Assembly: GCA_963841435.1 (NCBI GenBank)
Contig: CAWJCS010000005.1
Span: 96,001 to 160,000 of the forward strand
DNA length: 64,000 nucleotides
Origin: an uncultured delta proteobacterium
GTDB lineage: Bacteria; Myxococcota_A; Polyangia; Polyangiales; Polyangiaceae
Direction of reading: 5' to 3'
Part shown: positions 15,951-46,412 of the stretch, one piece after another
How positions within the stretch are numbered: the first letter of the stretch is position 1
Layout of the letters: every line of letters starts with the position of its first letter
The notes under the pieces: model-generated
Databases searched by the model: none
What the model was told of the DNA's origin: nothing
What the model saw: the letters and a program-made list of their open reading frames with translations, nothing else
Position numbers and translations under genes: made by a program

Positions 15951-16538
15951 ATGTCGATGCCCGCGCCGCGCTCGCTTGGGAACAAGGCGGCGGAGCGCAT
16001 CAGCGAGGCCGGTCCGCGCACCAGGCCGCTCGACATCGAAGATCTGTTTCGACTCCACTCACCCGCCATCGCGTCCGTCGGCCTCGCCATGCTCCAGAGT
16101 GCCGAGGAGGCGGACGATCTGGTCCAGGACGTCTTCGTGCGTGCCTGGCTCGCCATCGATCGACTGGAAGATCGCGAACAGGCGAGACCCTGGCTGATGA
16201 CGATCGCCATCCGGCTCGCGCGGACGCGGCTCAGGCGGCGCAAGCTCACGCGACTGCTTTTTCGCAGCGACGAACCCGACTTCGAGCACATTGCGGCACC
16301 GGGCTCCCTTCCCGAGCATCGAGACCTCGTCAAACGCCTCTACCTGATCCTCGATACGATCCCCGTCGACCTTCGCATCGCCTGGGTGCTGCGCCACGTT
16401 CAGGAAGAGACGGTCCAGAGCGTCGCCGCGCTGTGTGGGTGGTCGCTGTCCACCGCGAAGCGTCGCCTTCAAGCCGCGGAGACGCGCGTGTCCGTCAAGC
16501 TGAGCTTGGCGACCCAGGAACGGAGGCCACTCCCGTGA
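15951..16538 (+). CDS. ECF RNA polymerase sigma factor (copy A)
   Basis: Region 2 EADDLVQDVF..WL..IA and region 4 HTH LCGWSLSTAKRRL. Confidence 0.92.
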   Translation: MSMPAPRSLGNKAAERISEAGPRTRPLDIEDLFRLHSPAIASVGLAMLQSAEEADDLVQDVFVRAWLAIDRLEDREQARPWLMTIAIRLARTRLRRRKLTRLLFRSDEPDFEHIAAPGSLPEHRDLVKRLYLILDTIPVDLRIAWVLRHVQEETVQSVAALCGWSLSTAKRRLQAAETRVSVKLSLATQERRPLP

Positions 16539-17705
16539 CCGAGCTCCCTGTCGAGAAGCACGTCCAGGCAGCGCAACGCGAAATCCGCGTACGGGCCTGG
16601 GACGATGCGCGCGTGAGCTCGGCGTGGCAAGAGCTCGCGGGACGGCGCGCGGACGCGGTCCGGACCCGGCAGCGTGCGACCCAGCTCGGCGCCTCGCTCG
16701 CGCTCGCGGCGGCCATCGCGTTCGCGTTCTTCGGATGGCGCGCGATCCGCCCCCACGCCGCACCCCCCGGCACCGAAACGGCCTCGAACGCGCCCGGCGA
16801 ACGCCGCATCGAGCTCGGTGATGCGACCGACGTGGCATTCGACCCCGGCGCCAACGTCGACGTGCGAGAGCGCACCGGCACGCGAATCGTCGTGGCGGTG
16901 GGCTCCGGGGCGGCGCGTTTTCGCGTGCGGCACGATCCCCGTCGCGTGTTCCGCGTCGAAGCGAGCGGCGTCGAGATTGAAGATTCTCGGCACGACGTTC
17001 GAGGTCGAAAACCTCGGGTCGTCCGTCCGTGTCGCGGTGAGGGAGGGCTCGGTGTCCGTGAGCTTCCGCGAGTCCGAGGGCAGCGTGCGGACCACGAAGG
17101 TGCTCGAAGCCGGCGAGCGTGGCGTCTACCCAGCCAAGGTCGTCCCTGCTCCCGCCGCCGCGGTCGAGCAACCGGCTTCAGTCGAAAGCCCGGAGCCGGC
17201 CCGAACGGCCAACGCAACGCGTCCCGGCGTCGAGGCCGCACCGACGGCGGACTGGCGTGAGCTCAAGCGCGCGGGAAAGCACGCACGAGCCTACGAGCTC
17301 CTGCAGCCCCGTGGTTTCCGCGACGTGCGCGACGAACCGGGAGATTTGTTGCTCGCGTCCGACGTCGCGCGTCTTTCGCATCACCCGGCAGAGGCAGCCA
17401 TGCTGCTGCGCAAGCTCGTGGCGGGGCACTCGCGGGATCCGCGCGCGCCGTCGGCCGCCTTCACGCTCGGCTGGGTGCTCTTCAAGGACCTCGGCCGTCC
17501 GCGCGAAGCCGCCGCTGCTTTCTCGCGCGCCGAAGCACTCGCACCCAGCGGCAATCTGGCTGAGGACGCGCTCGCTCGCGCCATCGAGGCCTTTTACCGG
17601 GCCGGAGACAAGTCGCGCGCCCGGGCGGAGCTCGAGCGTTACGAGCGGACCCACCCGCACGGAAGACACCAGGCATCGCTCGAGCGGCTCGTGGGCACTC
17701 CCTGA
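16535..17705 (+). CDS. FecR-domain anti-sigma factor with C-terminal TPR-like domain; apparent frameshift ~16985
   Basis: GTGA coupling; one TM helix; FecR core (ARFRVRHDPRRVFRVEA..VEIED|LGTTFEV..VREGSV); helical C-terminus (APSAAFTLG..AEDALAR..YERTHPHGRH). One extra T in GATTCTC. Confidence 0.88.
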
Positions 17706-17812
17706 GAGCACCGCCCCCAGGGGGGCGCTCTGGACGCGGACTTTTCGCGACAAATGCCGTAAACCTACCGAGGGTGCCGGAAGGCCGAGTCGAGGTGCCC
17801 ACCACGAAGATC

Positions 17813-18592
17813 ATGCGCGCGTGTTCCACCTCGAGCCGCACCGCCTGCCATCTGGCCATGTGCACACTTTCGATGGCGCTCGGCGCGTGCGGAGAGACGA
17901 CGATCTCCATCGAAGACCCCGAGCGAGGCCCGGACCTCGACCTCGGGCTACTCGCGTATCTCCGCTTGGACGAGGCCACGGCAGGAGACCAGGCGTTCGA
18001 TTCATCTGGTCACGGCCACGACGGCAGCCCATCTGCGGACCCCCCGGTCCCATCCTCCTCGGTTCCGCCGGTTGGCTTCACGGATCCGCGAAGCCTCAGC
18101 TTCGACGGTCTCGCGCAGCTCGTCGATCTCGGCGGCCCCGCGACCCTCGACGTTGCGGGCAATGTCACTCTCTCGGCGTGGATCCGGCCACGCGCGCTGA
18201 ACGGCTACCGAAATGTCATCGCGCACGGCTTCCGCTGGTCCCCCAATGGCGACCTTTCGCTACGCATCTACGCGGGGGACTACGAGTTTACGGCTTGGGA
18301 CAGCGTGGACCACATGGCGAGCGCGGCGGTTCCCGAAGGCGACGTCAACACGTGGCACCACATCGCCGGCGTCTACGACGGTGAGAGCTACCGGCTCTAC
18401 CGCGACGGCGAGCTTCTCGCCGAGCACGCGGACACCTTCACGCCGATGCAATTCGATGCGCCCTGGGCAATCGGCGGGCGCTCCGCGACCGACCCCTCCG
18501 AAGGCCGCTACTTCGACGGCTTCATCGACGACGTTCGAATCTACGCGCGCGCGTTGTCGGCGGACGAGGTCCGCGCGCTGTTCCGCCGCTGA
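17813..18592 (+). CDS. LamG/concanavalin A-like lectin-domain lipoprotein
   Basis: Lipobox ALGAC; DSSG.GH.G, TLSAWI, WHHIAGVYDG, LYRDG and FDGFIDDVRIYARALS. Confidence 0.88.
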   Translation: MRACSTSSRTACHLAMCTLSMALGACGETTISIEDPERGPDLDLGLLAYLRLDEATAGDQAFDSSGHGHDGSPSADPPVPSSSVPPVGFTDPRSLSFDGLAQLVDLGGPATLDVAGNVTLSAWIRPRALNGYRNVIAHGFRWSPNGDLSLRIYAGDYEFTAWDSVDHMASAAVPEGDVNTWHHIAGVYDGESYRLYRDGELLAEHADTFTPMQFDAPWAIGGRSATDPSEGRYFDGFIDDVRIYARALSADEVRALFRR

Positions 18593-18663: not shown

Positions 18664-20106
18664 CTACGCGAGCATCGCGCTGATCTGGCCGCCCGAAAGA
18701 CCGCTCCCACCGAAGCTCTCGTAGGGCCCGCCGTTGTCGGTGCAGCCGACGGCGGTGAGGAGCGTGTTGTGCAGCTTGTTGTTCCCGACGCTCCCCGCGT
18801 TGACGAATTGGCCCTGCTTCAGGTACCCGCCCGCGCTGCCCGCGATGATGATCGGCAAGTTGTTGAAGCTGTGCGAGGGGCCGACCGCCACGTGGCTCGT
18901 CCACAGCGCGAACGCGTTGTCGAGCAGGGGACCGTTCGGCGTCGAGTACTGCTCCCACTTGTCGAGCAAGTACTTGAACGATTCGATGCGCAGCCGGTCG
19001 ATCGCCGCGTGTTGATCGACGGCGCCCGGGATGGCCGCGCCGGACGTACCGTCGCTCTGGATGCGATGGCTGATCCAGTGGAAGCGTTCGAGCAGCTGCC
19101 CGTCGATCGTGTAGCGCGTCGCGTCGGTACCGTCACCGACCTGCAGCGTTGCGACGCGTGTTGCGTTGCAGGAAAACGCAAAGGCGACGAGCTCCATCTG
19201 CAATTTTGCCACGTCCTCGGCCGCGCCGTTCTGACGGAAAGCCTGACCCGTGTTCATCGCCTGGATGGCCTGGACGTCGAGGCCGTCGGCGGAGCATTCG
19301 AGCCCCATCTGCATCATGGTGTTTTCCACGTCGCGAATGGACTGGAAGTGCTGATCGAGCCTATCGCGATCGGCTTGGCTGAGCTCGGGTCGATTGCGCA
19401 GCGAGTTCAGCTCTTCGCGGATCAAGTCGTTGACGCTGTTGCGACGGAGCGCCAGCCGATCGGCCGTGCCGGTGCCACTGCTACCGCCGCTGCCACCCGT
19501 CGTTCCCGATCCAACGAGCCCCACGAGGCGCTGGTAGACGTTGTAGGGATTTCCTTCGGCAGCGCGAACTTGCCCAGGGGCGCTGAAGGAAAGCTTTTCG
19601 TTGATGAAGCCACCCTTCAGCCCCGAATAAAGCGTCAGGGGATCCACGCCCGCGGGGTTGAGCTGCTCTGCGATCACCGTATCGACGGAAACGCTGGACG
19701 CCGTCAACTTGTTGTCCGTCCCATTCGGCTTGGACGCCGTGAGACACTGCACGAGCCCTTGGGCGTGCCCGCAGCCGCCGAGCCCGTACGGGTAGTTCAC
19801 GCCACGGACGATGAGCAGCCTCGCGGCGTGATCGGCGAGGATCCCCGTGCAGCGATCCGCGGCAAATGCCTGCATCGACTCGGTGGTGAGGGGCCCATCG
19901 GCGGTCGGCCAGAACTTTTCCGGATCGCCCCCCGACTTTTGCACGACGCCGCAAGACGTGCAGATGAAGAACGCGAAGCGAGGCGTCTCCGCTTGGGCGA
20001 AGGCCGAGCGTTCCGGCATCCCCTCGAGAAACGGGAGGCCCACGCCGAGCGTTCCCGCGGCCCGCAGGAACGCGCGCCGGTTGACGTGCGGGCGCTTGGG
20101 GCTCAC
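18664..20106 (-). CDS. DUF1552 (HXXSHH) protein, Tat-exported (pair 1)
   Basis: NRRAFLRAAG..LPFLE twin-arginine signal; CGHAQG, LDQHFQSIRDVE, FHWISH and SH....PIIIAG. Confidence 0.88.
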   Translation of the reverse strand: MSPKRPHVNRRAFLRAAGTLGVGLPFLEGMPERSAFAQAETPRFAFFICTSCGVVQKSGGDPEKFWPTADGPLTTESMQAFAADRCTGILADHAARLLIVRGVNYPYGLGGCGHAQGLVQCLTASKPNGTDNKLTASSVSVDTVIAEQLNPAGVDPLTLYSGLKGGFINEKLSFSAPGQVRAAEGNPYNVYQRLVGLVGSGTTGGSGGSSGTGTADRLALRRNSVNDLIREELNSLRNRPELSQADRDRLDQHFQSIRDVENTMMQMGLECSADGLDVQAIQAMNTGQAFRQNGAAEDVAKLQMELVAFAFSCNATRVATLQVGDGTDATRYTIDGQLLERFHWISHRIQSDGTSGAAIPGAVDQHAAIDRLRIESFKYLLDKWEQYSTPNGPLLDNAFALWTSHVAVGPSHSFNNLPIIIAGSAGGYLKQGQFVNAGSVGNNKLHNTLLTAVGCTDNGGPYESFGGSGLSGGQISAMLA

Positions 20107-21869
20107 TTGGCACCTCCCGTCCGGGTGAGAAAGCTCGGCTCTCCGATGACCGCGAGCACGATGTCCTTGATTGAAGCGTGGTCGTTCATGCTCATTCCTT
20201 CGATGCCGTCAACGAGAGCGCGATCACCGCCTGCGATGTCACGCGCCAGCGTGTATTCGGCCAGATGCATGGCGTAACAGCCGTGAACGCTCGGAGCTTC
20301 CGCGAGCAGAGCGGTCAGTCCGGGGGCCCCATCGAACGCGTGCAAGCCGTCCGACAATTCGAGCTCGCTCGAGGTGTCAACCGGCTTGCCGTTGTCGGTC
20401 GTGCGGATCTGGCCGATCGCGTCGAAGTTCTCGAAGGCGAAGCCCACCGGGTTGATGATCGCCCCATGGCAACCCTCGCCGCAGGTTCCCGGGCCCGTGA
20501 ACGCGTTGACGCGCTCGCGATTGGTCTGCCCTGGCGTGATGGTGGGTAAGGGTGGGATCGTGCCGGGCGGCGGCTGGAGCTCGGCGCACATCAAGCGGTT
20601 GATGATGTCAACGCCGCGGTGAATCGGATCCGGATCGTTGAGCGTCGCGTTCAACGAGAGGAAGCCGAGGCGCGTGAGGTAGCCGGGCCGCTCGGGACCG
20701 AGCTGGGTCTCGGTGAGAGCGGACCCGCTTGCCGTGACACCATACAAGGGTGCCGTCGCGGCGTTGACGAACGCGAGCGGCGAAGTCAGGAGCTCCCGCA
20801 CGCCCTGGCCAGCGGCGAAGATGCGATCGAAGAACATCTGATCGGCTAGTTGGAAGTCCGCATTGAGCGCCTGGGTGTAGTTGGGGAAGGCGGTGCGGTT
20901 CTTCTCGATCTGGGCGTAGCGATCGAGGCCCAAAAGCTCGGCGTGATAGCGGCCCAAGGTCGCCTGCCCGGCTGGCTCGGCGAGCATCGCCGTGGCTCGC
21001 GCGAGCACGCCGGCGGTCGTGTCGAGCTCCCCGGCGGCGGCCGCGTCGAGGAGCGCGTCGTCCGGAATGGTGTCGCGCAAAAGGAAGGAGAGCTTCGACG
21101 CCATCTCGTAGCCACCGAGCGGCGCGCCGTCGGTACCGAGCTCCATGCGGTAGAGGAAGTTCGGTGATTGCAGCATGCCCTCGACAATCATGTGCACCCC
21201 GTCCGCGAAGGCGTTGCCGCTCGCGACGAGCGTCACACCGGAATCGAAGACGGTCTGGTACCGCTGCTCTTCGGCGGCCGTCAGCGGGCGGCGGAAGGCC
21301 CTACGTCCGAACGTGCGAATGAACGTCGCCGAATCGGAGACGCCACCCGTGACCCGTGCGAGCGCCTGCGCATCGCCGGCAATCTGGTCAGCCAGCGTCT
21401 CGGCGGCACGCTGATAGTCGAGGCGCAGATCGGAGCTCACGAACAGCGCACGCTCGTTGTTCGAGAACGTGCCGTTCGGAGGATCCGGCGCGAAGCCTTG
21501 GGACAGCCCGGGAGTCGCGGAAAGGCCGAGCAGGTCGCGAACGCTCGCCTCCCATTGCGAAGCCGTCAGGCGAACGAAGCGAAAATAGTCGGGCGTGCCG
21601 GCGAGATCGATCCCCGAGCTCGTCGTACCCCCGGTCCCACCGAGCCCCGTGCCAGCGGAGCCCGCCGCAGCACCCGAGCTGCCCCCCGTGGCACCGGTTC
21701 CACCCGCCACCTGCGTCGTCCCGGCGCTGCCGCCCGTTCCCACGCCGCTCGAGGCGCCGCTGCCGGGCCCGCCCGCCTGTCCCCCGTCGATCGTCGCCGT
21801 GCAACCGAGGGCAAGCGCCAAAGGCAACAGCAGCAATCCGACGCGACGACCCGAGGTTGGTTTCGACAT
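20103..21869 (-). CDS. DUF1592/1595/1587/1588/1585 lipoprotein (pair 1) with CxxxCH
   Basis: Lipobox ALGC; Gly tether; RLT..Q...VRDL, FGRRAFRRPL, LQSPNFLYR, EMASKLSF, PIHRG, CGEGCH and GFAFENFDAIG. Confidence 0.88.
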   Translation of the reverse strand: MSKPTSGRRVGLLLLPLALALGCTATIDGGQAGGPGSGASSGVGTGGSAGTTQVAGGTGATGGSSGAAAGSAGTGLGGTGGTTSSGIDLAGTPDYFRFVRLTASQWEASVRDLLGLSATPGLSQGFAPDPPNGTFSNNERALFVSSDLRLDYQRAAETLADQIAGDAQALARVTGGVSDSATFIRTFGRRAFRRPLTAAEEQRYQTVFDSGVTLVASGNAFADGVHMIVEGMLQSPNFLYRMELGTDGAPLGGYEMASKLSFLLRDTIPDDALLDAAAAGELDTTAGVLARATAMLAEPAGQATLGRYHAELLGLDRYAQIEKNRTAFPNYTQALNADFQLADQMFFDRIFAAGQGVRELLTSPLAFVNAATAPLYGVTASGSALTETQLGPERPGYLTRLGFLSLNATLNDPDPIHRGVDIINRLMCAELQPPPGTIPPLPTITPGQTNRERVNAFTGPGTCGEGCHGAIINPVGFAFENFDAIGQIRTTDNGKPVDTSSELELSDGLHAFDGAPGLTALLAEAPSVHGCYAMHLAEYTLARDIAGGDRALVDGIEGMSMNDHASIKDIVLAVIGEPSFLTRTGGAK

Positions 21870-22173
21870 AGTCACCTGATTGGCTCCCGGCATCGATGTC
21901 CGCTCGAGCGGAACGTTTGGTTCTCGAGAGAGGAGGAGTCCGATGCTCCAACTATAAAGGGAGGCTTCGTCGCCCAAGCGCGCTCACAAATAAACCTTCG
22001 GTATCATTGAAAAAATGAGTACGGATTCGCTTCTCGTTGAATCCCGAACTGAGTCGTCCGTGGCCGTCCGATCACCGACCTTCGACTACGTCGGACGACA
22101 TCCACCCACCCGCTTCGGATCGTTCGGGCGAGCGTTTCGGCGGCCGAGCGGACCGTCGAGGCGCTCCCGAACG

Positions 22174-22737
22174 TCACTGGCTCGCGCCGTCGTTCATGCA
22201 CTGGGCGAGCGCGGGGTCGCGGCTCGCGAGATTCTTGAAGCGCGTTCGTGCTCTCGACAGGCGGCGCCGCACCGTGATGACGGAGCAGCCGGCCGCGGCT
22301 GCCATGGTGCCGAGCGTCGCGGGGCTGAACCAGTACGTCGCGAGGAGGGCGCGATCGGGAGGCGGCAACCGATTCATGACGCGAATGGCGCGCGACGCGA
22401 GGTCTCGCTCGTCGGTCTCGATCTGGAACGACGGCCGTAGCTGCTCCGGCACGGTCTCGAGCGAGGCGTGCCGACGATGGCGTCGGTGCCGCATCGTGCT
22501 CCTCAGGGTGTTCATCGTCACTTGGGCCACCCAGGCGTCGAGGCAAGCCGGATCGCGCAGCGTTTCGACGCCACGAATGACCGACATCAGCACTTCCTGC
22601 ACCAGATCCTCGTGCTCGTCGTCCTGACCGAGGACGGCCTTGACGTGGCGCGCGATCTTCTTGGCGTAGCGAGCATGCAGGTGCTCGGCCGTCAGCACGG
22701 CTTCGATCTGGGGGGGGTTGACGAGGGCGGCGGACAT
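22174..22737 (-). CDS. Orphan ECF sigma factor (no adjacent anti-sigma)
   Basis: EHEDLVQEVL, LRDP..LDAWV and GCSVITVRRRLSRAR. Confidence 0.85.
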   Translation of the reverse strand: MSAALVNPPQIEAVLTAEHLHARYAKKIARHVKAVLGQDDEHEDLVQEVLMSVIRGVETLRDPACLDAWVAQVTMNTLRSTMRHRRHRRHASLETVPEQLRPSFQIETDERDLASRAIRVMNRLPPPDRALLATYWFSPATLGTMAAAAGCSVITVRRRLSRARTRFKNLASRDPALAQCMNDGASQ

Positions 22738-22774
22738 CTCGTGACTAGCTCCCTGCAGCGCTGTTCCCGCAGCA

Positions 22775-22790
22775 CGCAATTAGCAGGCCG
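22775..22790 (-). promoter_or_regulatory. Putative sigma54 -24/-12 promoter
   Basis: CGGCCTGCTAATTGCG on the minus strand (GG-N10-GC with TTGC), 38 nt upstream of the ECF start. Confidence 0.6.
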
Positions 22791-23261: not shown

Positions 23262-24645
23262 TCAGGCCTGGATGCCGGGCAACGCCGCCGTGACGCGTCC
23301 GCCGTCGAGACCGAGCTCGGTCTGCGTCGAGCCCATGATCTGCGCGGCCGTGAGGAGCGCTCGGCTCAGGTTCTCACCCGGAAAGTTGAAGTGCTCGTCG
23401 CCGCGTAGCCGGCCAGCTGCCTTCCCCGCGAGGAGCACCGGCCACTCCTCCTTCGTGTGCGTCTTACCCCAGGCGGTGTCGGAGGTGACGTAAACGAGCG
23501 TGTCGTCGAGCAGGGTCGAGCTACCGTGCGGAGTGTTCTTGAGGTTCACCAAGAATTCGTTCAGGCACTTCATCGCGTAGAGAACGCCGGTGTCGACGCG
23601 AGGCTGATTGGATTGATCTCCGGCGTCACCGTGACAGATGGTGTCGTGGAAATCGTCGTTCATGTTCGATGCGAGGTGCCGGTAGTACACGTGCGCCGCG
23701 GGTAGCGAGAACATGAACGTGGCGACGCGCGTCTTCTCGCAGGCGAGGGCGAGCGTCGTGAGCTCGGCCATGGCGGAGTTCACGGCAGGGGGAGCCTCGC
23801 TCTTCGAATCGGGGCCGACGCCGGGAGCCATCGCGCTGCCGCACGCCGCTGGCAGCGTGCCGCCCGTCGTGGGCATCGTGTCGAGGCGCAGCTCGATGGC
23901 TCGGATCGCCTCGAGGTGCTGCTCCACGCGCGCCTTGTCGGCGGCTCCGAGGCGCTGCTCGAGACTCGCGCCGTCCTCGAGAATGGCATCGAGCACGCTC
24001 TTTCGGACTCTCGCAAGCTTGGCGGCGGGATCGTCCGTACCCGTCGTGGGAGGGGGCGTGCTGCCACCCGTGAACAAGCGATTGAACACGGCCTTTGGAT
24101 CGAACTCGGGGTTCAGACGCGCGTTCGGCCCACGGTGCGACACGGTGTGCAGCGAGTCCGGATTGCCGTTCGGCGTGGCAGGCGTCACGCCCACCTCGAG
24201 CGAGCGGTAGGGCGCCCCCGTGGAAATGAGAATCCGCGACGACCTGATCGATGGACGCAGCTCGGACGGCGTTGCCGTTGAGCGGCGCGCCGGTCGTGGC
24301 CGCCGCCGACCCCGTCGGATGCTCGTTCCCGGAAACCACGAGCTTGCCCTGGAGTCCCGAGAGCACGGTGAGGTACGACTTGACCTCCACGAGCGGCTGG
24401 AGCTGTGGGCTGAGCTGCCACGCCGATCCGGAGCCCGTGCTGGTCGGCTTCCAGAGACCGGGGAGCGAGCCGTTCCCGAAGAACCAGGTCACGAACAGCG
24501 GCGTGAGGGCCGTGTTCGTCTGCGCGAGCGCCGTGCCGTTCTCGTTCAACATGGCATCCAAGAGCGGGAGCGGAATGGTGACGGCGGCACCCGTCGCAAG
24601 CATGCCCCGAAGAACGGTGCGTCGGTCCAAAGCTTTGATCGTCAT
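23262..24645 (-). CDS. DUF1552 protein, Tat-exported (pair 2); apparent frameshift ~24232
   Basis: DRRTVLRG..LPLLDAM; SIDQVVAD|LISTG..YRSLEVG after removing one base; RKSVLD, VEQHLEAIRAIE and FHDTICH. Confidence 0.85.
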
Positions 24646-24662
24646 CGAAATTGCCGTTCGGA

Positions 24663-26546: not shown

Positions 26547-26554
26547 GCACGTTC

Positions 26555-29597: not shown

Positions 29598-29615
29598 GAC
29601 GAGCAGATACATACA

Positions 29616-34458: not shown

Positions 34459-34462
<4 letters not shown>
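33455..34462 (-). CDS. Aldo/keto reductase (AKR13-like)
   Basis: GLGCMG, FDTAALYG, ATK, IDLYYLHR, GLSE, QSEYS, FSPLGRG and PIPGT. Confidence 0.92.
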
Positions 34463-36708
<2,246 letters not shown>

Positions 36709-36709
<1 letters not shown>

Positions 36710-37626: not shown

Positions 37627-37630
37627 GGCT

Positions 37631-38536
37631 CTACCTCGTCGTGCCCTTCAGGTGGATGAGGAGGCGATCGGCCTCGGTGCGAAAGTCCGGGCTGCGTGCG
37701 AAACCGTCGCTCCCTCGCTCGCCGAAGAGACCTCGCTCGGCGAGGTCGGCGATGAAACGCTGCCGCTCGGCCGCGCCCACGGCGCTCCAGGGCTCGAGCC
37801 CGGCGTCGCGCACGGTGACGGCCGCCTCCTGCATCTCCTCGCTCCGGCGAGCGCCGTGCTCGATGACGCGCTGGAAGAAGTAGGCCGCCTGTTTCTCCCA
37901 GTCGATGCCGGGAAACGTCTCGTGCAAGGACGCGATCACCGCCAGCTCGACACCGTAGTGGCGCGCGGCGGTGAAGCTTTCGATGAGGATCGCTTCGAGC
38001 CCCTTGATCATCACGCTGCGGCACATCTTCGTGGCGCTGGCGACGCCCAGCGTGCTGCTCGCGACCTTCGGCGCGAAGCCGAGTCCGCGGAGCACGGGCT
38101 CGAGCGCTGCCGCGTCGGGACCACCGAGGAAAAGCGGCACCTTGCTGCGGTAGGGCGGCACGGACGTCATGACGGCACCCTCGACGTAGCGAGCACCGCC
38201 GGCCGTCACCGGCTCCGCAGCCGTGATCTTGGCAGCGGGTGACGCGGAATTGAGGTCGAGAAAGAAGCTTCCTGCCGGCAGCTCCCCAGCGCACGCCCGC
38301 GCCGCCGCCAACGTTTGGCTCGCCGTGACGGCCGACACGACGAGCCCGGCCTCGCGTACCGCGTCGGCGTGCGACTCGGCGAGCCTGACGCCGTACGCGT
38401 CCGCATGGGCTCGGAGCGCCTCTCGGGCACCGGACCGGAGCTTGAGATCGAAGGCCGTCACCCGATGGCCCGCGGCGCCGAGATCCTCGGCGAGAATGCG
38501 CCCAACCTCGCCGTAGCCGATCAACGCGACGTTCAC
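37631..38536 (-). CDS. NAD(P)-dependent oxidoreductase (6PGD/3-HIBADH-like, DUF1932 C-terminus)
   Basis: IGYGEVG, DLNSASP, YVEGAVM, KMCRSVMIKGLEA and HGARRSEEM. Confidence 0.85.
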   Translation of the reverse strand: MNVALIGYGEVGRILAEDLGAAGHRVTAFDLKLRSGAREALRAHADAYGVRLAESHADAVREAGLVVSAVTASQTLAAARACAGELPAGSFFLDLNSASPAAKITAAEPVTAGGARYVEGAVMTSVPPYRSKVPLFLGGPDAAALEPVLRGLGFAPKVASSTLGVASATKMCRSVMIKGLEAILIESFTAARHYGVELAVIASLHETFPGIDWEKQAAYFFQRVIEHGARRSEEMQEAAVTVRDAGLEPWSAVGAAERQRFIADLAERGLFGERGSDGFARSPDFRTEADRLLIHLKGTTR

Positions 38537-38621
38537 GCGGGCGCCCTTCGAAGCGGAGGGACGCGCGGCGAGCTCGAGGCGAGACCGCTCGGATAGCGAC
38601 GGTGGCTCCGGATCGCGCTCA

Positions 38622-39305
38622 TCAGTCGATGTAGCGGAGCCCCGCCCGAGCGAGCGTGTCGCGCATTTCGTACATGTCGAGGCCGAGCACGCCAGAGGCC
38701 AGAATTTCGCGCTTCCTTCGCTCGTTCTGGGCTCGCTTCGTGGCGGCTTCGAGCGTTGCGGCCGCCATCGCGCGAGGCACGCAGACGACGCCGTCGTCAT
38801 CGGCCACGATCACGTCACCCGGGTGCACGAGAGCGCCGGCACAGACCACGGGAACGTTGACGGAGCCGAGCGTTGCCTTGACCGTGCCCTTGGGGCTCAC
38901 GGCCCGACTCCAGACCGGGAACTCCATCTCGGCGAGATCCTTCACGTCGCGGCAGCCGCCGTCGATGACGAGCGCGCGGGCACCACGCGCCTTGAACGAG
39001 GTCGCGAGCAGATCTCCGAAAAAGCCGTCGGTGCTCTCCGTCGTGACCGCGGCGACGACGATGTCGCCCGGCTCGAGCCGTTCGGCAGCCACGTGCAACA
39101 TCCAGTTGTCACCCGGCTGCAAGAGCACGGTGATCGCCGTTCCGCCCACGCGCGCCCCTGGGAAGATCGGCCGCAGGTAGGGCTTCATCACGCCGACGCG
39201 GCCCAGCGCCTCGTGAACGGTGGCGCTGCCGAAGGCAGCGAGCGCGTTGACGAGCCGGAGCTCCGTTCGCTCGATGTTTCGATACACGACTCCGAGCTCG
39301 TACAT
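38622..39305 (-). CDS. ligK: 4-carboxy-4-hydroxy-2-oxoadipate aldolase/oxaloacetate decarboxylase
   Basis: [26 protein letters not shown] and ADDDGVV. Confidence 0.95.
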
Positions 39306-39307
39306 GG

Positions 39308-41586
<2,279 letters not shown>

Positions 41587-42273
41587 TCATGCGGGGTCCA
41601 TGCCGTGGTGTCGCTTCGCGTCGCTGGTCGCTTCCGAGGCCATGAAGGCGACGAATGCCCCGGCCGGGTCCGGTTGGCGTGAGCGCGCGCCGAGCGCTGC
41701 CGAGAAGGTCGTGACGATCTCCATCGCTTTGGGCAAGGGACCGACGATGTCGATGCCCTCGACGTGCATCAGCTCGGACAGCTGCTGGAAGCCGAGCTCC
41801 ACCTCGCCGCGCGCGACCAATTCCCCCACGGGCACGCCGGGGGGCGCCACGATGATGCGCTCGCGCAAGCGTTCGGTGACGCCCCAGCGCGCGAACGCCT
41901 CGGCGAGCTGCACGCCGCTCGGGCCGGTGGAATGGCCGATCGTGCGCGCGGCGAGCACGGTGCGTTCGAGGGCCTCTTCGGTGTCGATCGCGGGCCGCGG
42001 CGCGCCGGCGCGGACGGCGACGGCAACCCCCGAATGCGCGAGCGCAACCTCTGGTCCCGTGAGATGGCCGGCGGCGAGCAGCTTCTCGATGGCATCGCGG
42101 GCGAGCACCACGACGTCGAAGACCTCTCCGTCTTCGATGCGCTTTTTGGCGTCGACGCCGCCCACCGATTGGATGGACACCTCGCATCCCGAGCGCGCCT
42201 CGAAAGCGCGGGCCAGCTCGCCAAGCAGGGCCTTGGTGGCCATCGACGAAACCACGGAGATCGGTTCACTCAT
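41587..42273 (-). CDS. ModA-fold substrate-binding-domain protein lacking a signal peptide
   Basis: SSMAT, GE.FDVVVL, STGPSG, VARGEVELGFQQLSEL and GPLP; no hydrophobic N-terminus; no ABC permease nearby. Confidence 0.8.
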   Translation of the reverse strand: MSEPISVVSSMATKALLGELARAFEARSGCEVSIQSVGGVDAKKRIEDGEVFDVVVLARDAIEKLLAAGHLTGPEVALAHSGVAVAVRAGAPRPAIDTEEALERTVLAARTIGHSTGPSGVQLAEAFARWGVTERLRERIIVAPPGVPVGELVARGEVELGFQQLSELMHVEGIDIVGPLPKAMEIVTTFSAALGARSRQPDPAGAFVAFMASEATSDAKRHHGMDPA

Positions 42274-42534: not shown

Positions 42535-43167
42535 GTGAGGCGTTTCGTCGTGCTCGCTCTCGCGATCGTGCTTTCCGGCTGCGGCAGCGGCATCGGGCGA
42601 CCGCTGCGTTCCGACCGGGGTGCCGCTGACGCCGCGAACGGCGGCTCGGGGGGTGACGGGGCCGGCCTCGGAGGATTGTCGGGCTTCGGAGGGCTCGGCG
42701 GCGGCGGCACGGCGGGCGCTGGCAGCGACGTGCCGCCAGGCGACGAATGTTCCTCCGTCGCCGACTGGCCCGAGGACGCGCGCGCCCAGGAGGAGTGGAC
42801 GCTCACGATCGTCAACGGTTTGCGCCAGGCGGGTCTCGACTGCTCGGGCGACCGGGGTGCGAGCTCGGCGCCCGCCCCCATGGACCCGGAGCTGCGCTGC
42901 GCCGCGCGGCTGCACGCGCGCGACATGGCCGAAAATGGCTATTTTTCACACGTGGACCTCGCGGGCGACGGCCCGGAGGAGCGCATCGCGCGTGCAGGGC
43001 AGGCGTTTGGCGTCGCCGGGGAAGCCATCGGGCAAACCGATTCCGGGCTGCCCGTCTTCGTGCCCGCCGACGACGCGGACTGCGCGGCGCTGCTCGACGG
43101 GCGTTTCGACGCGGTCGGCGTCGGCGTGTTCGACGCGATGACCACCGTCGACCTCACGGGCCCCTAG
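42535..43167 (+). CDS. CAP (SCP) domain lipoprotein
   Basis: Lipobox LSGC; VNGLR, LRCAARLHARDMA..YFSH and VGVG. Confidence 0.85.
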   Translation: MRRFVVLALAIVLSGCGSGIGRPLRSDRGAADAANGGSGGDGAGLGGLSGFGGLGGGGTAGAGSDVPPGDECSSVADWPEDARAQEEWTLTIVNGLRQAGLDCSGDRGASSAPAPMDPELRCAARLHARDMAENGYFSHVDLAGDGPEERIARAGQAFGVAGEAIGQTDSGLPVFVPADDADCAALLDGRFDAVGVGVFDAMTTVDLTGP

Positions 43168-43314: not shown

Positions 43315-43972
43315 ATGGAGCCTTCCCCGTTTTCCAAGAGCGCTCCGCACGACGGTGGCCCGGCGCCGGAAGCCAAGGTCGTGCGGCTGCCGCTGCCGGA
43401 GACGGACGCGGCGCTCGTCACGGCGGTTCTCGCCGAGCGGCCCGGCGCCCCAGGGCGGTTCTTCGAACGCTTCAGCGACGACGTTCGAACGCATCCTCTG
43501 GCGCGTCCTCGGACCGGACCCCGAAATCCCGGATCTCTTGCACGACGTGTTCCTCGTTGGACTGACGACGCTCGCGCGGCTCAGAAACCCGGACGCCGTG
43601 CGTAGCTGGCTCGTGGGCATCGCAGTCCACAAAGCCAAAAAACAGATCCGCGATCGCCGGCGCGCACGCCGGCTGGAAAGTACGGCGCCTTCGGACCTTC
43701 CGGAGCGGACGGCGCCGAGCACACCCCCGGAGGCGAGCGACGCGCTCCGGGCGACCTACCGCGTGCTCGGCCAGCTCCCCGTCGACGAGCGCATTGCGTT
43801 CGCGCTCAGGCACATCGACGGCATGGAGCTCACCGAGCTCGCGGTCGCGGTCGGGGCGTCGCTCGCAACCGTCAAGCGTCGCCTGCGGCGCGCGCACGAC
43901 GGGTTCGTCACGCTCGCCCACGACGAAGGCGCGCTCGAAGGCTGGCTCGACGAAAGGACGTTCCGCCGATGA
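43315..43972 (+). CDS. ECF sigma factor; apparent frameshift ~43485
   Basis: DAALV..; DDV|ERILWRVLG after removing one T; DLLHDVF, WL.GIA and SLATVKRRL. Confidence 0.88.
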
Positions 43973-45243
43973 GCCCGCTGGACCCGCCGTTTCGGCGCAT
44001 CGCCGAGGAAGAGGACCGCTTGCGCGCGGACGGTCGCGCGCGCAAGGAGGCAGGAGCGCGCATCGCCGCGTTTCGGGCGCCGCCGAAGCGCCGCACCCGA
44101 GCCTTCGTCGCGCTCGCTGCCGCGGCGGCCGTGCTCGCGCTCGTCACGGGGGCGGCTTTTGAGCTCGGGGGCCCGGCGCCGCTCGGCGTCGAGCTCGTCG
44201 GCGCGGAGCGGCGACCCCTCGTGGGGGTTTGGCTGGGTGCTCCAGCGGGGGCGTCGGTACCGCTGCGCTTTTCGGACGGTACGCGGATCGAGCTCTCGCC
44301 GAGTTCGCGCGCGCGCGTCGCCGAGGTGCGTCCCGAGGGTGCGCGCATCGAGCTCGAACGCGGACGGCTGCACGTCGAGGTCGTGCCGCGCCCGGGGGCG
44401 CACTGGGATCTCGTCGTCGGCCCGTTCGCCGTGCTCGTCACGGGCACGCGCTTCGACGTGAGCTTCGACCCCGAGCGAGACACCTTCGTGCTCGCGCTCG
44501 AGGAGGGTTCGGTGAAGATCTCGGGTTGTGCGTTCGGAGCCGCTCGCGAGCTCGCGGCGGGACAGACCGTGCGGGCTACCTGCCAGAAGCCGAGTGTGTC
44601 GGTGAGCTACGAGCCGCCGTCGCGCGAGGACGAGCGCGCCGCCGAGGTGCTATCGGCGCCAGCAGCGTCCGACCGCACTCGACCCCCCGCCGCGGCCCAG
44701 GACGAAAGTGGCCCGCCGGGTGACGCGCTTCCACCACGCGCGTCACCGGGGCCGGCTCCGAGCGCAGCGCGGGCGCCGCAGGAGTGGGTCGAGCTCGCGC
44801 GGCACGGCGGGTACACCGAGGCGATCGCGGCGGCGGAGGCGGCGGGGTTCAGCGCGGAGGCGAAGAGCGCGAGCCTCGAGGAGCTCGTGTTGCTCGGCGA
44901 TGCTGCCCGGCACGGGGGCGCTCCGCGGCGCGCCGTCGAGGCCTTCACGCTGTTGCGCTCGCGATTTCCTGGCACGAGCGACGCCGCGCTCGCCGCCTTC
45001 ACGCTCGGTTGCCTCGAGTTCGACGCCTTCGCGGACTACCAGCGCGCCGCCGGCTGGTTCCGCACCTACCTCGGCGAGCAGCCGGGCGGCCCCGTCACGC
45101 GCGAGGCGCTCGGACGCCTCACGGAGGCGCTCCACCGCGCCGGCAGCGAGAACGATGCACGCGAGGCCGCCCGCCGCTACCTGAAGCAGTACCCTTCGGG
45201 CCCCCATGCGGAGCTCGCGTCACGCCTTCTCGAAGCACCCTGA
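43969..45243 (+). CDS. FecR-domain anti-sigma factor with TPR-like C-terminus
   Basis: TM helix; LRFSDGT, LERG, VTGTRFDV, LEEGSV; AAFTLG, EALGRL and YLKQYPSGPH. Confidence 0.9.
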   Translation: MSPLDPPFRRIAEEEDRLRADGRARKEAGARIAAFRAPPKRRTRAFVALAAAAAVLALVTGAAFELGGPAPLGVELVGAERRPLVGVWLGAPAGASVPLRFSDGTRIELSPSSRARVAEVRPEGARIELERGRLHVEVVPRPGAHWDLVVGPFAVLVTGTRFDVSFDPERDTFVLALEEGSVKISGCAFGAARELAAGQTVRATCQKPSVSVSYEPPSREDERAAEVLSAPAASDRTRPPAAAQDESGPPGDALPPRASPGPAPSAARAPQEWVELARHGGYTEAIAAAEAAGFSAEAKSASLEELVLLGDAARHGGAPRRAVEAFTLLRSRFPGTSDAALAAFTLGCLEFDAFADYQRAAGWFRTYLGEQPGGPVTREALGRLTEALHRAGSENDAREAARRYLKQYPSGPHAELASRLLEAP

Positions 45244-45265
45244 GGGCTGGCTCCGCTCGGCGCGG

Positions 45266-46412
45266 ATGCCGCTTTCCATCGTGAGCGTGCTCGTCGCGTT
45301 CGGCGCGGGCGCGGGCTCGGCCGCGCGCCCAAGGTGCGCCGCAGGTTGCCGCCGGGGGCGCGCGCGCACCGAGCACGGAGCCCTCGATCCTGCTCGTGAG
45401 AACGCCGGGCGACGATGCCGTCGTCGCGCGTCTGCGCGCCGAGCTCGCGCCGAGCCGATGGGCCATCGTCGAGCTCCGTCCCGATGCCCGGCGGGCTGCG
45501 CTGCCCCTCGCCGAGTTGGCGTTGCGCGAGGGCGCCACGGCCGCCGTGCGAGCCCACGCCGCGCGCGGCGAGGTCGAGCTTTTCGTCGCGCACGAGGGAG
45601 GCGGCGTCGAGGAAACGGTCTCGGTGCCAGAAGGACGAGAGAATGAACGCGTGCTCGCGCTGCGTACGACGGAGGTGCTCCGCGCGCGCGGGCTCGATCT
45701 CGACCGAGCGCCGGCAGCAACGAGCGCCGAGGTGCCCGCGCTGCCGACGCGCGGGGCCCCGGCACCGGGCCCGCACGACAGGGGCGTGGTGCCTCCGCCC
45801 GCGACGCTCGGCACCGCGCGCCGGCCCGCGGACCGCAGCGTTTGGCTCGAGGTCGCCCCCGCAGCATCGTTGGGGCCCGGCGGATTGCCTCCGGCCGTCG
45901 AAGGGGCGCTCGCCGCGCGCGCCGACCTGCTGGGCCCCTGGTCAGTGGCGCTCTTCGCGACGGTTCCGCTCGTCCCCCAGACGCTCGAGGCCCCCGAGGG
46001 GCGTGCGCGAGTCTCCACGTTCGTCGCGGGCGCGGCGCTCGACGGCGCGTGGCTCGGCGGAAGGGTCGCCGCGTTGAGCTCGGGATTCGGGGCGGGCCTT
46101 TCGGCCACCGGGATGAGCGGCGAGCCGAACGCCGGTTACCAGGGCGCCGACGACACCGTGCTCGCCGGGATGCCGTTCGTTCGTTCGGCGGCAAGCCTGG
46201 TCCTCACGCCGACGCTTCGCCTCGTGGCCCGCGTGAGCGCCGGCGTGACCGTTCCCCGCGTCCGGGTCTATTTCGGCGACCGCGAGGCGGCCACCTGGGG
46301 TGGGCCCGTCCTTTCGGCGAGCCTCGGGCTCGAGGTCGCCCTATTTGGCCTGGGAGGCACCCCGGCGCCCCGGTCGTCGGCGAGCGTGAGCCGTCCCGAC
46401 CGGTCTCGGTGA
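45266..46412 (+). CDS. Secreted protein: N-terminal domain, Pro-rich linker, probable small beta-barrel; apparent frameshift ~45321
   Basis: Signal ending SARA-Q after removing one C; LALRTTEVLRA helix (compare LALAIAELIR of 26654-27661); Pro linker; amphipathic strands ending SASLGLEVALF. Confidence 0.65.

Follow-up and report, generated by a model that had tools for sequence, protein, structure and literature searches.

Repeated ECF sigma/FecR-TPR cassettes in a Polyangiaceae genome look like a previously undescribed, TonB-independent route for outer-membrane signals to reach gene expression

The window analysed here, a stretch of 64,000 nucleotides from an uncultured soil myxobacterium of the Polyangiaceae (positions 96001 to 160000 of contig CAWJCS010000005.1, hereafter C5), carries three pairs of an ECF sigma factor and a FecR-domain anti-sigma factor, in all of which the anti-sigma has a TPR domain at its C-terminus. 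In the canonical FecIRA arrangement, FecR-like anti-sigmas pair with TonB-dependent receptors. As the first-pass annotation of this DNA had stated, the window contains no such receptor, all 12 Plug-domain matches of the genome lying outside C5:96001-160000.

Gene content of the three cassettes

Genes were called from third-position GC content and Pfam matches. A barrel-type protein of approximately 315-340 aa, belonging to no named family, is encoded 3' of two of the three pairs (cassettes 2 and 3), and the gene calls in the window place none in cassette 1:

15918-16538, plus strand: cassette 1 ECF sigma (Sigma70_r2 E 1e-16, Sigma70_r4_2 E 1.3e-5)
16535-17705, plus: cassette 1 FecR/TPR anti-sigma (two frames joined; homology to the cassette 2 anti-sigma)
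17813-18592, plus: cassette 1 LamG (Laminin_G_3) lipoprotein (PF13385 E 4.8e-29; lipobox ...MALGAC)
20103-21977 and 18664-20106, minus: DUF1592/DUF1552 pair directly after the fourth ECF (Pfam)
22174-22779, minus: fourth ECF sigma, no anti-sigma (Pfam)
23262-~24660, minus: cassette 2 DUF1552 (HXXSHH) protein (profile match over two frames)
24663-26546, minus: cassette 2 DUF1592-family (PSD/PSCyt) lipoprotein, 3' of barrel 2 (PF07627, PF07631, PF07637, PF07624, PF07626; lipobox ...LLGIGC)
26654-27595, minus: cassette 2 outer-membrane barrel protein, 313 aa (translation, family alignment, AF2, Foldseek)
27844-29013, minus: cassette 2 FecR/TPR anti-sigma (PF04773 E 1.9e-12; weak TPR matches in Pfam)
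29010-29612, minus: cassette 2 ECF sigma (Sigma70_r2 E 3.2e-17)
42535-43167, plus: CAP-domain lipoprotein with 6 Cys, upstream of the cassette 3 ECF (PF00188 E 4.7e-5; lipobox ...IVLSGC)
43355-43972, plus: cassette 3 ECF sigma (Sigma70_r4_2 E 8.9e-11, Sigma70_r2 E 8.4e-7)
43969-45243, plus: cassette 3 FecR/TPR anti-sigma (PF04773 E 7.7e-10; YbgF/CpoB-type TPR E 2.9e-6)
45266-46412, plus: cassette 3 barrel protein, second subfamily (body from 45285/45396; translations, family alignment)
47144-49501, minus: PilQ secretin, context outside the module (Secretin, AMIN and STN domains, Pfam)

The Pfam matches bear out the three pairs with TPR-ended anti-sigmas proposed in the first-pass annotation, and the motifs quoted there are real and conserved. 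Its text gave a barrel to two cassettes, in agreement with our calls, while its title counted three copies, which the barrel-less cassette 1 contradicts. The lipoprotein cargo said to end every cassette is present as the LamG protein of cassette 1 and the DUF1592 protein 3' of barrel 2. For cassette 3, the '6-Cys' protein is the CAP protein, which is located upstream of the sigma gene and not at the cassette's end. For the cassette 1 ECF, only the generic ECF superfamily model of NCBIfam passes the cut-off. The anti-sigmas of cassettes 1 and 2 share 62% identity over 239 C-terminal residues; on this sequence comparison the two cassettes are paralogues, whose clustering is not by chance. Those of cassettes 3 and 2 share 28% identity over 327 residues (E 3e-13).

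Three apparent one-base frameshifts occur in the assembly. In FecR1, one extra T at 16984 splits the gene between the frame of 16535 (N-terminal part) and that of 16617 (C-terminal part), and this base is missing in an at least 99% identical soil-metagenome contig covering 16824-17070. In barrel 3, the signal-peptide-like start at ATG 45266 is out of frame with the gene body, and its homologues in the family alignment carry signal peptides. The DUF1552 gene is split near 24220, with profile positions 2-94 in frame 23626-24837 and 97-288 in frame 23262-24488. The out-of-frame state of FecR1 and barrel 3 was counted against reading the cassettes as working signalling units.

A 4-base overlap joins the sigma gene to the anti-sigma gene in both cassette 2 and cassette 3, the ECF stop overlapping the anti-sigma start in cassette 2. 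This arrangement speaks against the proposal, made for group ECF267, that Ser/Thr kinases mainly control the sigma and that FecR-TPR is not its cognate regulator. The ECF267 text places one to three kinases in the genetic context and states that their position is not conserved (PMC7826278); a Pfam scan found none among the 48 ORFs of the window. We regard kinase control as very unlikely here.

The anti-sigma and the lack of a TonB-type transducer

The cassette 2 anti-sigma has a cytoplasmic N-terminus, one transmembrane segment (approximately residues 52-72), a FecR domain (92-174), a linker and a TPR domain (approximately 240-389). Its Gly-Thr pair (G153-T154) recurs in 28 of the 30 FecR-TPR sequences aligned, across which F309, G312, A345, Y369, P374 and G376 are invariant. 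Compared with the PDB, the anti-sigma profile matched a Bacteroides anti-sigma (4m0n, E 2.2e-14), a consensus TPR (E 2.6e-9) and CpoB (E 9.2e-6), and the Gly-Thr motif aligned in position with that of the solved Bacteroides protein. The TPR occupies the place where canonical FecR has its STN-like C-domain.

Could these anti-sigmas nevertheless pair, in FecIRA style, with TonB-dependent receptors encoded elsewhere? The 12 Plug-domain receptors of the genome, one of them (C5:72325-72660) approximately 24 kb before the window start, might suggest so. However, against 19 FecR-domain matches, the genome (7.8 Mb) yields a single STN match, which belongs to PilQ (C5:144221-144358, window 48221-48358); therefore none of the Plug receptors carries an STN domain, and the genome contains no FecA-type transducer. 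Moreover, the STN-like C-domain by which canonical FecR contacts STN is missing from these anti-sigmas, and 81 genomes of the class hold only 0-2 STN matches each. TonB-receptor pairing, which the first-pass annotation had named as a way for its idea to fail, is already disfavoured, and we find it scarcely credible.

The third gene: fold, co-location and predicted contact

Barrel 2 comprises a signal peptide, a periplasmic head (residues 21-115) with two conserved Cys, a Pro-rich linker (116-144, 11 of 29 residues being Pro) and an 8-strand barrel (145-312) ending in Phe. Although the protein matched no family in Pfam, NCBIfam or PDB sequences, its AF2 model (mean pLDDT 87.7) shows an alpha/beta head, the linker and an 8-stranded barrel, and Foldseek ranks the OmpA transmembrane domain, NspA, OmpX, Ail and OmpW highest (E 1.8e-7 to 2e-5). 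The C-terminal 170 residues would have the fold of OmpA, OmpX and OmpW, and Phe is the last residue in 31 of the 37 family members; in contrast to those proteins, the additional domain stands N-terminal to the barrel and has a different fold. An aromatic C-terminal residue is found in 0 of 16 members of subfamily 2. The model thus supports the earlier suggestion that the third gene encodes an outer-membrane barrel. The families of barrels 2 and 3 are remote homologues (hhalign probability 96%, E 3.8e-9, 215 columns).

The modelled head has a beta-alpha-beta-beta-beta-alpha fold with a disulfide-type Cys pair. In structure comparisons it resembled no clear known fold and was not STN-like, which counts against a signalling role; its best matches, the TolB N-domain (E 4e-3) and HPF/VtrA/TolB (Z 6.5-7.7), fall inside the tool's stated noise range. 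Residues R97, L99, A100, L101 and E105 are invariant in the family alignment (n=37).

The barrel gene is consistently found next to the anti-sigma gene. Searches at E<=1e-3 gave 2403 cluster representatives; among 401 genomes of the class, 98 have one barrel subfamily and 76 the other. In 10/10, 27/28 and 29/29 assessable loci, the gene immediately before the barrel gene, in the same orientation, encodes a FecR-TPR protein, the 29/29 set being the second subfamily and the 27/28 set sharing four loci with the 10/10 set. The one exception, locus L018, where no FecR was seen upstream, was counted against the reading we favour. Within the genome itself, a detectable barrel gene follows directly in 6 of the best 10 FecR-TPR ORFs, and FecR-TPR/barrel paralogue pairs co-diversify.

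These data bear on the alternative that the barrel is merely a co-transcribed target of the sigma, outside the signalling path, with the anti-sigma TPR sensing something else. Regulon members also typically take the +2 operon position, the gap of approximately 250 nt between anti-sigma and barrel 2 could house a separate promoter, and cassette 1 consists of ECF, anti-sigma and LamG genes without a barrel. Against this, the adjacency is kept in two remote subfamilies while the genes 3' of the barrel vary, and the residues best conserved in the two proteins come together in a single predicted interface. We hold this alternative to be quite improbable. The co-conservation on which the first-pass annotation had made its idea depend was recovered. 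Cassette 1 either functions without a barrel gene of its own or is non-functional, which counts against the three-component reading. LamG is the conserved downstream cargo of this type of cassette: in 9 of the 11 related loci, the barrel gene is followed directly by a LamG homologue.

Complex prediction of head and TPR gave ipSAE values of 0.88, 0.88 and 0.87, compared with 0.01 for the best of three controls; of 157 solved complexes, 116 pass the mark used, as do 2 of 215 mismatched pairs, a calibration that is only roughly valid here because the contact was modelled with alignments built for this analysis. The runs shared at least 92% of contacts, with partner pLDDT of at least 82. In the predicted docking, the conserved helix of the head would lie inside the TPR groove. 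Conservation is higher in the interface than in the rest of each partner (TPR 0.68 versus 0.55, reached by 94 of 10000 random subsets; head 0.70 versus 0.59, reached by 249 of 10000). The periplasmic head is therefore predicted to touch the anti-sigma TPR, as the first reading of the sequence had envisaged. The three checks fixed beforehand, on the barrel nature of the third gene, its co-conservation and TonB partners elsewhere, were all run and none refuted the idea, which stands supported.

Proposed mechanism and known systems

With gene content, fold, co-location and the lack of STN transducers established, we consider it fairly probable that these are three-component trans-envelope cassettes of the cell-surface-signalling type in which both periplasmic contact parts have been replaced. 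A single-pass FecR-domain anti-sigma with a periplasmic TPR end would hold the ECF sigma, and its outer-membrane partner would be a small OmpA-like 8-strand barrel rather than a TonB-dependent transducer. The head, on its Pro-rich linker, would dock by its long conserved helix (R-E-L-A-L-A-I-A-E-L), which would sit in the groove of the TPR around the motif D-P-R-A-P..A-A-F-T-L-G, itself conserved. We infer the proteolysis, direction of control, signal and regulon. If FecR and FoxR are a guide, the anti-sigma would cleave itself at Gly-Thr, and the docked barrel partner would decide whether the C-terminal fragment remains on the membrane stub. Loss or alteration of the contact would lead periplasmic and site-2 proteases to remove the stub, and the freed sigma would transcribe the cassette and neighbouring genes for secreted and surface proteins. 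The published accounts describe FoxR self-cleavage at Gly-191/Thr-192 and its protection by the FoxA signalling domain (PMC11637429), and a cleavage cascade of FecR (PMC12036975).

Two further points count against this proposal: no ligand-binding surface is evident on the modelled barrel, whose outward turns span only approximately 2-4 residues (DSSP string of the AF2 model), and we know of no energy source that would separate the partners without TonB. A shared ECF-type promoter before cassette and cargo genes was looked for and not found. This also counts against the proposal, and leaves unsupported the claim that surface lipoproteins are switched on by the module.

RseB shields RseA. In a variant of the favoured explanation that differs in the type of signal, the head would shield the anti-sigma likewise, with the barrel as a passive anchor, and the pair would report the state of the envelope or outer membrane instead of an outside ligand; barrel misassembly, outer-membrane damage or a changed inter-membrane distance would take the shield away. 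The very short predicted turns, the flexible linkers on both proteins, which could span the periplasm, and the account that a Pseudomonas transducer signalling domain protects FoxR without signal (PMC11637429) agree with this variant. At least eight diverged paralogous copies per genome, each by different secreted-protein genes, would be unexpected for a generic stress sensor, and we judge this variant unlikely, though worth keeping in view.

Like FecIRA, FoxIRA and PupIRB, the cassettes combine an ECF sigma, a single-pass FecR-domain anti-sigma with Gly-Thr and an outer-membrane beta-barrel protein. In both, a flexible linker carries the N-terminal periplasmic domain of the barrel protein, and this domain meets (here by prediction) the anti-sigma at its periplasmic C-terminal domain. 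The cassettes differ in having an OmpA-like barrel of approximately 170 residues instead of a 22-strand TonB-dependent transporter with plug and TonB box, a different head instead of STN, TPR instead of the STN-like domain, and no evident energy input or transport function.

The first-pass annotation knew of no characterised example. This is right only in part: pairs of an ECF sigma and a FecR-TPR protein that have no TonB receptor have already been grouped as ECF267, described in Polyangiaceae (Sorangium, Chondromyces), with position +1 taken by a FecR-like anti-sigma that carries a fused TPR, and stated to lack FecA-like or other TonB-dependent receptors (Casas-Pastor et al. 2021, PMC7826278). 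The window cassettes share lineage, FecR-TPR and lack of a receptor with this group, their sigmas being likened to it by description. The claim stands for the barrel, as the ECF267 description, covering 28 proteins and proposing kinases as regulators, names no +2 gene (PMC7826278), and the literature searched yielded no barrel partner of such a pair. Beyond ECF267, the cassettes add this +2 partner and the module's spread through the class.

In ECF46 of Planctomycetes and Verrucomicrobia, a FecR-like anti-sigma with no obvious transducer is described as linked to a Laminin_G_3 carbohydrate-binding domain (PMC7826278); there LamG is fused to the anti-sigma, whereas the window type has a separate LamG lipoprotein after the barrel gene and TPR on the anti-sigma. 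In SigX-CfrX-CmpX-OprF (ECF102), ECF activity is described as depending on an OmpA-family outer-membrane protein (PMC7826278). SigX-OprF and sigmaE-RseA-RseB resemble the cassettes in tying ECF activity to an OmpA-family protein or an anti-sigma-shielding periplasmic protein, but contain neither a FecR domain nor TPR. To our knowledge, neither involves direct docking of a head to the anti-sigma. OprF has its barrel N-terminal and a peptidoglycan-binding domain C-terminal, the reverse of the cassette barrel order.

Gene layout of the cassettes

Within the window, whose G+C content is about 68-70%, genes were chosen by third-position G+C first and by Pfam second. The resulting layout comprises three sets of an ECF sigma factor gene and a FecR-TPR anti-sigma gene (cassettes 1 to 3), two of which also contain a gene for a small putative barrel protein. 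The anti-sigma and barrel proteins are numbered after their cassettes.

Genes of the three cassettes and the fourth ECF sigma factor gene
15918-16538 (+), ECF sigma factor, cassette 1 (Pfam)
16535-17705 (+), FecR/TPR anti-sigma 1 (Pfam, translation)
17813-18592 (+), LamG lipoprotein, cassette 1 (Pfam)
29010-29612 (-), ECF sigma factor, cassette 2 (Pfam)
27844-29013 (-), FecR/TPR anti-sigma 2 (PF04773)
26654-27595 (-), barrel 2, 313 aa, no family
24663-26546 (-), DUF1592-family lipoprotein, cassette 2
23262-~24660 (-), DUF1552 protein, cassette 2
42535-43167 (+), CAP-domain lipoprotein with six Cys, placed before ECF sigma factor 3
43355-43972 (+), ECF sigma factor, cassette 3 (Pfam)
43969-45243 (+), FecR/TPR anti-sigma 3 (PF04773)
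45396-46412 (+), barrel 3, 338 aa, no family
22174-22779 (-), fourth ECF sigma factor, without an anti-sigma gene, directly before another DUF1592/DUF1552 pair

The first-pass annotation had described three ECF/FecR-TPR pairs, two of them followed by a barrel gene although its title spoke of three copies of the full cassette, and each cassette ending in a lipoprotein gene. The three pairs were confirmed, as was the presence of a barrel gene in just two of the cassettes (cassette 1 has none), with the correction that the CAP-domain lipoprotein gene lies before the third ECF gene. Cassettes 1 and 2 are paralogues, their anti-sigmas being 62% identical over 239 residues, and cassette 3 is distant (28% anti-sigma identity, E 3e-13). 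A single related locus carries, in this order, ECF, anti-sigma, barrel, LamG, DUF1592 and DUF1552 genes, so that one ancestral cluster, duplicated and in part reduced, seems to underlie cassettes 1 and 2. The fourth ECF gene, together with its DUF1592 lipoprotein and a Tat-signal DUF1552 protein, spans 18664-22779 (-). A third DUF1592/DUF1552 pair, at 30024-33358, is divergent from cassette 2, and three such pairs are found inside 15 kb of the window. Reading of the sequences revealed lipoboxes in the DUF1592 proteins and twin-arginine signals in the DUF1552 proteins.

Apparent one-base shifts interrupt three of the genes in this region. In anti-sigma 1, one extra T at 16984, right before a conserved Gly-Thr, divides the gene between two frames. 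A soil-metagenome contig (246 nt, depth 2.2) covering 16824-17070, at least 99% identical with one synonymous difference, is one base shorter at 16984 and places anti-sigma 1 in a single frame. The DUF1552 gene of cassette 2 (-) splits near 24220, Pfam positions 2-94 and 97-288 falling in different frames. Finally, barrel 3 has a signal-peptide-like start (MPLSIVSVLVAFGAGAGSAA) in a different frame from its body, the break being located between 45266 and about 45330, and its database entry begins at 45396, without a signal peptide. Since the metagenome contig does not contain the extra base, the breaks may reflect errors of assembly or differences between strains and not gene decay, and the DUF1552 break, considered alongside the others, suggests that the assembly contains indel errors.

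Domain architecture of the anti-sigma and barrel proteins

All three anti-sigmas consist of a short cytoplasmic N-terminus, one hydrophobic segment (called as transmembrane by reading the sequence), a FecR domain, an Ala/Pro/Ser-rich linker and a C-terminal TPR region. The FecR family PF04773 was detected in anti-sigma 2 (E 1.9e-12) and anti-sigma 3 (E 7.7e-10). When a profile of 30 anti-sigmas was searched against the PDB, the FecR part matched the solved Bacteroides anti-sigma 4m0n (E 2.2e-14) and the C-terminal part matched a consensus TPR (E 2.6e-9) and CpoB (E 9.2e-6). Several Pfam TPR families (E 8e-5 to 1e-2, each under its cut-off) and the NCBIfam YbgF model (E 2.9e-6) also fell on the TPR region, and neither Pfam nor the PDB profile search found an STN-like C-domain, only TPR families following the FecR domain. 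A Gly-Thr motif, the putative site of self-cleavage, is present in 28 of the 30 aligned anti-sigmas; PMC11637429 places the self-cleavage site of FoxR at Gly-191/Thr-192.

No known sequence family was matched by the barrel proteins in Pfam (E<=0.01), NCBIfam or PDB sequences (E<=1). Barrel 2 has about 50 close relatives, every one unnamed, and its profile recovered 2403 cluster representatives out of 1.84 billion at E<=1e-3, a number that falls to 1223 with the limit at 1e-10 and to 67 with the limit at 1e-30. In the Atlas it fell in unnamed Myxococcota clusters only, the nearest named cluster, OMP_b-brl, scoring 0.87. The alignment of these relatives (subfamily 1) exhibits a signal peptide, an N-terminal periplasmic domain (hereafter the head) with two nearly invariant Cys, an invariant helix R-E-L-A-L-A-I-A-E-L and a Gly-rich C-terminal half that terminates in Phe in 31 of 37 members. 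An AlphaFold2 model of barrel 2 built on the family alignment (mean pLDDT 87.7) comprises a beta-alpha-beta-beta-beta-alpha head (residues 21-115), a disordered, Pro-rich linker (residues 116-144; 11 Pro in 29 residues) and an all-beta domain (residues 145-312) with pLDDT mostly above 90. With a probability of 1.00, Foldseek matched this last domain to the transmembrane part of OmpA (E 1.8e-7 to 1.4e-6), to NspA (7.3e-6) and to OmpX (8.2e-6); Ail and OmpW were also matched. The C-terminal domain of barrel 2 is thus predicted to adopt the closed antiparallel fold of the small 8-strand OmpA/OmpX/OmpW-like barrels, which supports the earlier claim of an outer-membrane barrel. Its outward turns, as we read them from the DSSP string of the model, are just 2-4 residues long.

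The head folded alone reached a pLDDT of 88.2. Foldseek returned no match for its fold at E<=0.001, the best being the TolB N-domain (E 4.1e-3), and the best VIA-align Z scores among 48161 chains were 7.7 (hibernation factor), 6.9 (VtrA) and 6.5 (TolB), values in a range that, according to the tool, is common between unrelated models. STN chains were not listed among the structural matches of the head, which amounts to no match and not to proof of differing folds. Barrel 3 represents a second subfamily, whose members carry signal peptides (that of barrel 3 itself being out of frame) and end in an aromatic residue in 0 of 16 cases. BLASTP between barrels 2 and 3 was not significant (E 0.25); the profiles of the two subfamilies align over helix, linker and barrel with a probability of 96% (E 3.8e-9, 215 columns).

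Predicted head-TPR contact and co-conservation of the genes

The complex of the periplasmic part of anti-sigma 2 (residues 80-389, 30-row alignment) and the barrel 2 head (residues 16-120, 37-row alignment) was predicted with scores of 0.88, 0.88 and 0.87, whereas none of three controls exceeded 0.01. The mark used for this score is a rough guide here, as our own alignments were used; 116 of 157 solved complexes attained it, against 2 of 215 mismatched pairs. The runs share at least 92% of their contacts, with a pLDDT of at least 82 for the partner. On the TPR side the predicted interface lies within residues 245-384 and includes L272, D276, R279, D301-R303, F309, T310, G339-L341 and D344; on the head side it comprises helix 1 (36-45) and the long helix (80-116), including E41, R80, L84, R97, E98, L101, E105 and R109. 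Conservation is higher at the interface than in the remainder of the domain, both for the TPR (0.68 versus 0.55; 94 of 10000 random subsets as high) and for the head (0.70 versus 0.59; 249 of 10000), and the motifs picked by eye in the first-pass annotation are residues of this interface. Its proposal that the barrel protein contacts the anti-sigma TPR is thereby supported by a controlled prediction; the model supports the binding of a head helix in the TPR groove rather than showing it. The charged residues named by the predicted interface make this contact immediately testable. Furthermore, the stretches of anti-sigma 1 aligned to the predicted contact stretches of anti-sigma 2 (DPRAPSAAFTLGW; GNLAEDA) are identical, which suggests that anti-sigma 1, without a barrel of its own, could use barrel 2 in trans.

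Linkage of the two genes was assessed by a neighbourhood census, as the first-pass annotation had proposed, and the association held. Among the 11 loci that a subfamily 1 pattern scan of species genomes returned from Polyangia/Myxococcales MAGs, all 10 with upstream DNA have the end of a FecR-TPR gene just 5' of the barrel gene, and 9 of the 11 have a LamG gene 3' of it. Among 29 subfamily 1 loci fetched from other genomes, four of which are the same places as pattern-scan loci, an anti-sigma gene is directly upstream of the barrel gene in 27 of 28 assessable cases, the exception being L018, and one locus (L029) ends at a contig edge. For subfamily 2, the relatives of barrel 3, the anti-sigma gene is upstream in 29 of 29 fetched loci. 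In a sample of 401 genomes of the class, subfamily 1 is present in at least 98 genomes and at least 51 of the 163 genera sampled, and subfamily 2 in 76 genomes. All 9 matches in a phylum sample of 301 genomes fall within the same class; like the subfamily 1 counts, this strict first look sets a floor. By their database titles, the proteins related to those of the window come from Polyangiaceae or Polyangia.

The genome of the window (7.78 Mb, 6 contigs, 95% complete) contains 19 matches to the FecR model, and a FecR-TPR profile recovered 28 six-frame ORFs. Six of the ten best are immediately followed by a detectable barrel-family ORF, another has a gene for a head-bearing protein before its ECF gene, and one is that of cassette 1, without a barrel; one additional, weaker FecR-TPR/barrel pair is also present. 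Paralogue pairs co-vary: the C1 copy is the nearest one for both anti-sigma 3 and barrel 3, as is the copy at C5:1.67 Mb (whole-contig coordinates) for both anti-sigma 2 and head 2. One locus of this genome (L043, C5:1669500-1677500) shows a variant order, in which a 345-aa head protein, matching subfamily 1 profile positions 3-138 only (the head), is followed by ECF and FecR-TPR anti-sigma genes.

The genes 3' of the barrel vary. The 36 ORFs scanned at this position include FG-GAP (7), G8/beta-helix (4) and ferredoxin-type oxidoreductase (3) genes, 13 without a family, and genes for an alpha-L-fucosidase with a discoidin domain, a beta-helix protein and a Cip1-like domain. FG-GAP, G8/CEMIP-type beta-helix or fucosidase/discoidin genes follow the barrel gene at L048-L051, L055-L061, L065 and L032/L039 in other genomes, which points to glycan-related secreted proteins as its usual neighbours.

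Relation to known cell-surface signalling systems

The STN model has a single match in the genome, inside PilQ (window 48221-48358), and therefore none of the 12 Plug-domain receptors of the genome, all of them encoded outside the window, carries an STN domain. The first-pass statement that the window has no TonB-dependent receptor stands, and a receptor with an STN domain was not found elsewhere in the genome either. Across 81 genomes of the class that are at least 90% complete, STN matches number 0 in 14, 1 in 61 and 2 in 6, so that FecA-type transducers seem generally rare or lacking in the class despite many FecR-domain genes.

To our knowledge, signalling from the outer membrane to a sigma factor has so far been understood only for TonB-dependent transducers, in which the TonB motor gives the force that frees the anti-sigma. 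The window's anti-sigmas resemble those of the FecIRA type in having one transmembrane segment, a periplasmic FecR domain (PF04773) and a conserved Gly-Thr. However, they end in a TPR region instead of an STN-like transducer-binding C-domain, and their genome encodes no TonB-dependent transducer bearing an N-terminal STN signalling domain. As both of these parts are missing, we file the system as one that would work like cell-surface signalling but is not a FecIRA-family member. FecIRA systems use sigma factors of the FecI-like clade (ECF239-243); for those of the window, the generic ECF superfamily was the sole NCBIfam model above cut-off.

A closer counterpart is ECF267 (Casas-Pastor et al. 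2021, PMC7826278). The excerpted account describes this group from Sorangium and Chondromyces, with a FecR-like anti-sigma fused to TPR at +1 and no FecA-like/TonB-dependent receptor; it suggests kinases in the genetic context, at positions that are not conserved, as possible regulators, reports promoter motifs that are not conserved, and names no gene at +2. The window shares with ECF267 the FecR-TPR gene at +1, the lack of a TonB-dependent receptor in the window and the origin in Polyangiaceae, and its sigma factors likely belong to this group. Kinase families were not detected among 48 window ORFs scanned with Pfam. No gapped -35/-10 word shared by the regions upstream of the four ECF genes, barrel 2, LamG and three DUF1592 genes rose above noise, and an alignment of five ECF upstream regions contained a weak GAA-N-G-N-TTC-like stretch in three. 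The first-pass remark that no characterised example exists has to be narrowed: the ECF/FecR-TPR pair is already catalogued in the ECF267 account, and the remark holds for the barrel partner. The full-text literature, subscription journals aside, yielded one relevant source on ECF267 and no description of a barrel partner or of TonB-independent cell-surface signalling. The ECF267 anti-sigma, seemingly partnerless since 2021, would gain a putative barrel partner.

In Pseudomonas, PMC11637429 describes a transducer signalling domain that binds the anti-sigma C-domain and shields it against proteolysis until the signal arrives. In E. coli, according to PMC12036975, the self-cleaved C-fragment of FecR prevents further cleavage until TonB and FecA remove it. 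By analogy, the module would follow the same logic, the small barrel taking the role of outer-membrane partner.

The present analysis demonstrates the parts of the module, the predicted fold of its barrel, the gene linkage and the lack of STN transducers, and it supports, as far as computation can go, the first-pass interpretation of TonB-free signalling through contact between barrel head and TPR. Its further idea that the module switches on surface lipoproteins gained no such support, no shared promoter having been found. A more detailed picture, which taken as one joint proposal we consider rather unlikely, is that of a TonB-independent cell-surface signalling system whose tether is a minimal outer-membrane barrel. 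The Pro-rich linker and docking head of the barrel would hold the self-cleaved TPR fragment of the anti-sigma, and a change at or in the outer membrane, triggered by altered membrane spacing or when the surface proteins encoded alongside touch substrate or prey, would pull or free the fragment and start anti-sigma proteolysis. In Polyangia, this module would have been multiplied to roughly 8-10 diverged copies per genome, each wired to its own glycan-binding or glycan-cleaving secreted proteins (LamG, FG-GAP, G8/beta-helix, fucosidase). If true, this tethering system would be a myxobacterial counterpart of the SusC-type transducer/anti-sigma/ECF circuits of Bacteroidota. With the FecR core kept, both contact domains swapped and TonB dropped, the module offers a test case for signalling without the TonB motor. 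It also provides a likely role for an unnamed family of about 2400 cluster representatives, and points to how large-genome soil myxobacteria may turn individual sets of secreted proteins on and off.

Other genes of the window surround the cassettes. Between cassettes 2 and 3, an aromatic-acid meta-cleavage-type cluster (33455-42273, -) encodes an aldo/keto reductase, a LigB-type dioxygenase, an amidohydrolase_2 protein, a DUF1932 dehydrogenase, an RraA-like aldolase, an FAD monooxygenase and a solute-binding protein. Type IV pilus genes are clustered at 47144-54530 (-) and encode the PilQ secretin (AMIN and the genome's only STN domain), PilP, PilO and the PilM-PilN region. Divergent from cassette 1, a lipoprotein gene (14349-15635, -) encodes a PHB-depolymerase-type esterase domain (NCBIfam E 8.5e-18, under cut-off) along with a long linker rich in Gly, Ala and Ser. 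At 46456-47031 (-) lies a Pro-rich ORF of 191 codons, a putative gene, which matches no family, has a third-position G+C of 0.91 and includes PPLDLLPPVPAEPPLPPL as a repeated stretch.
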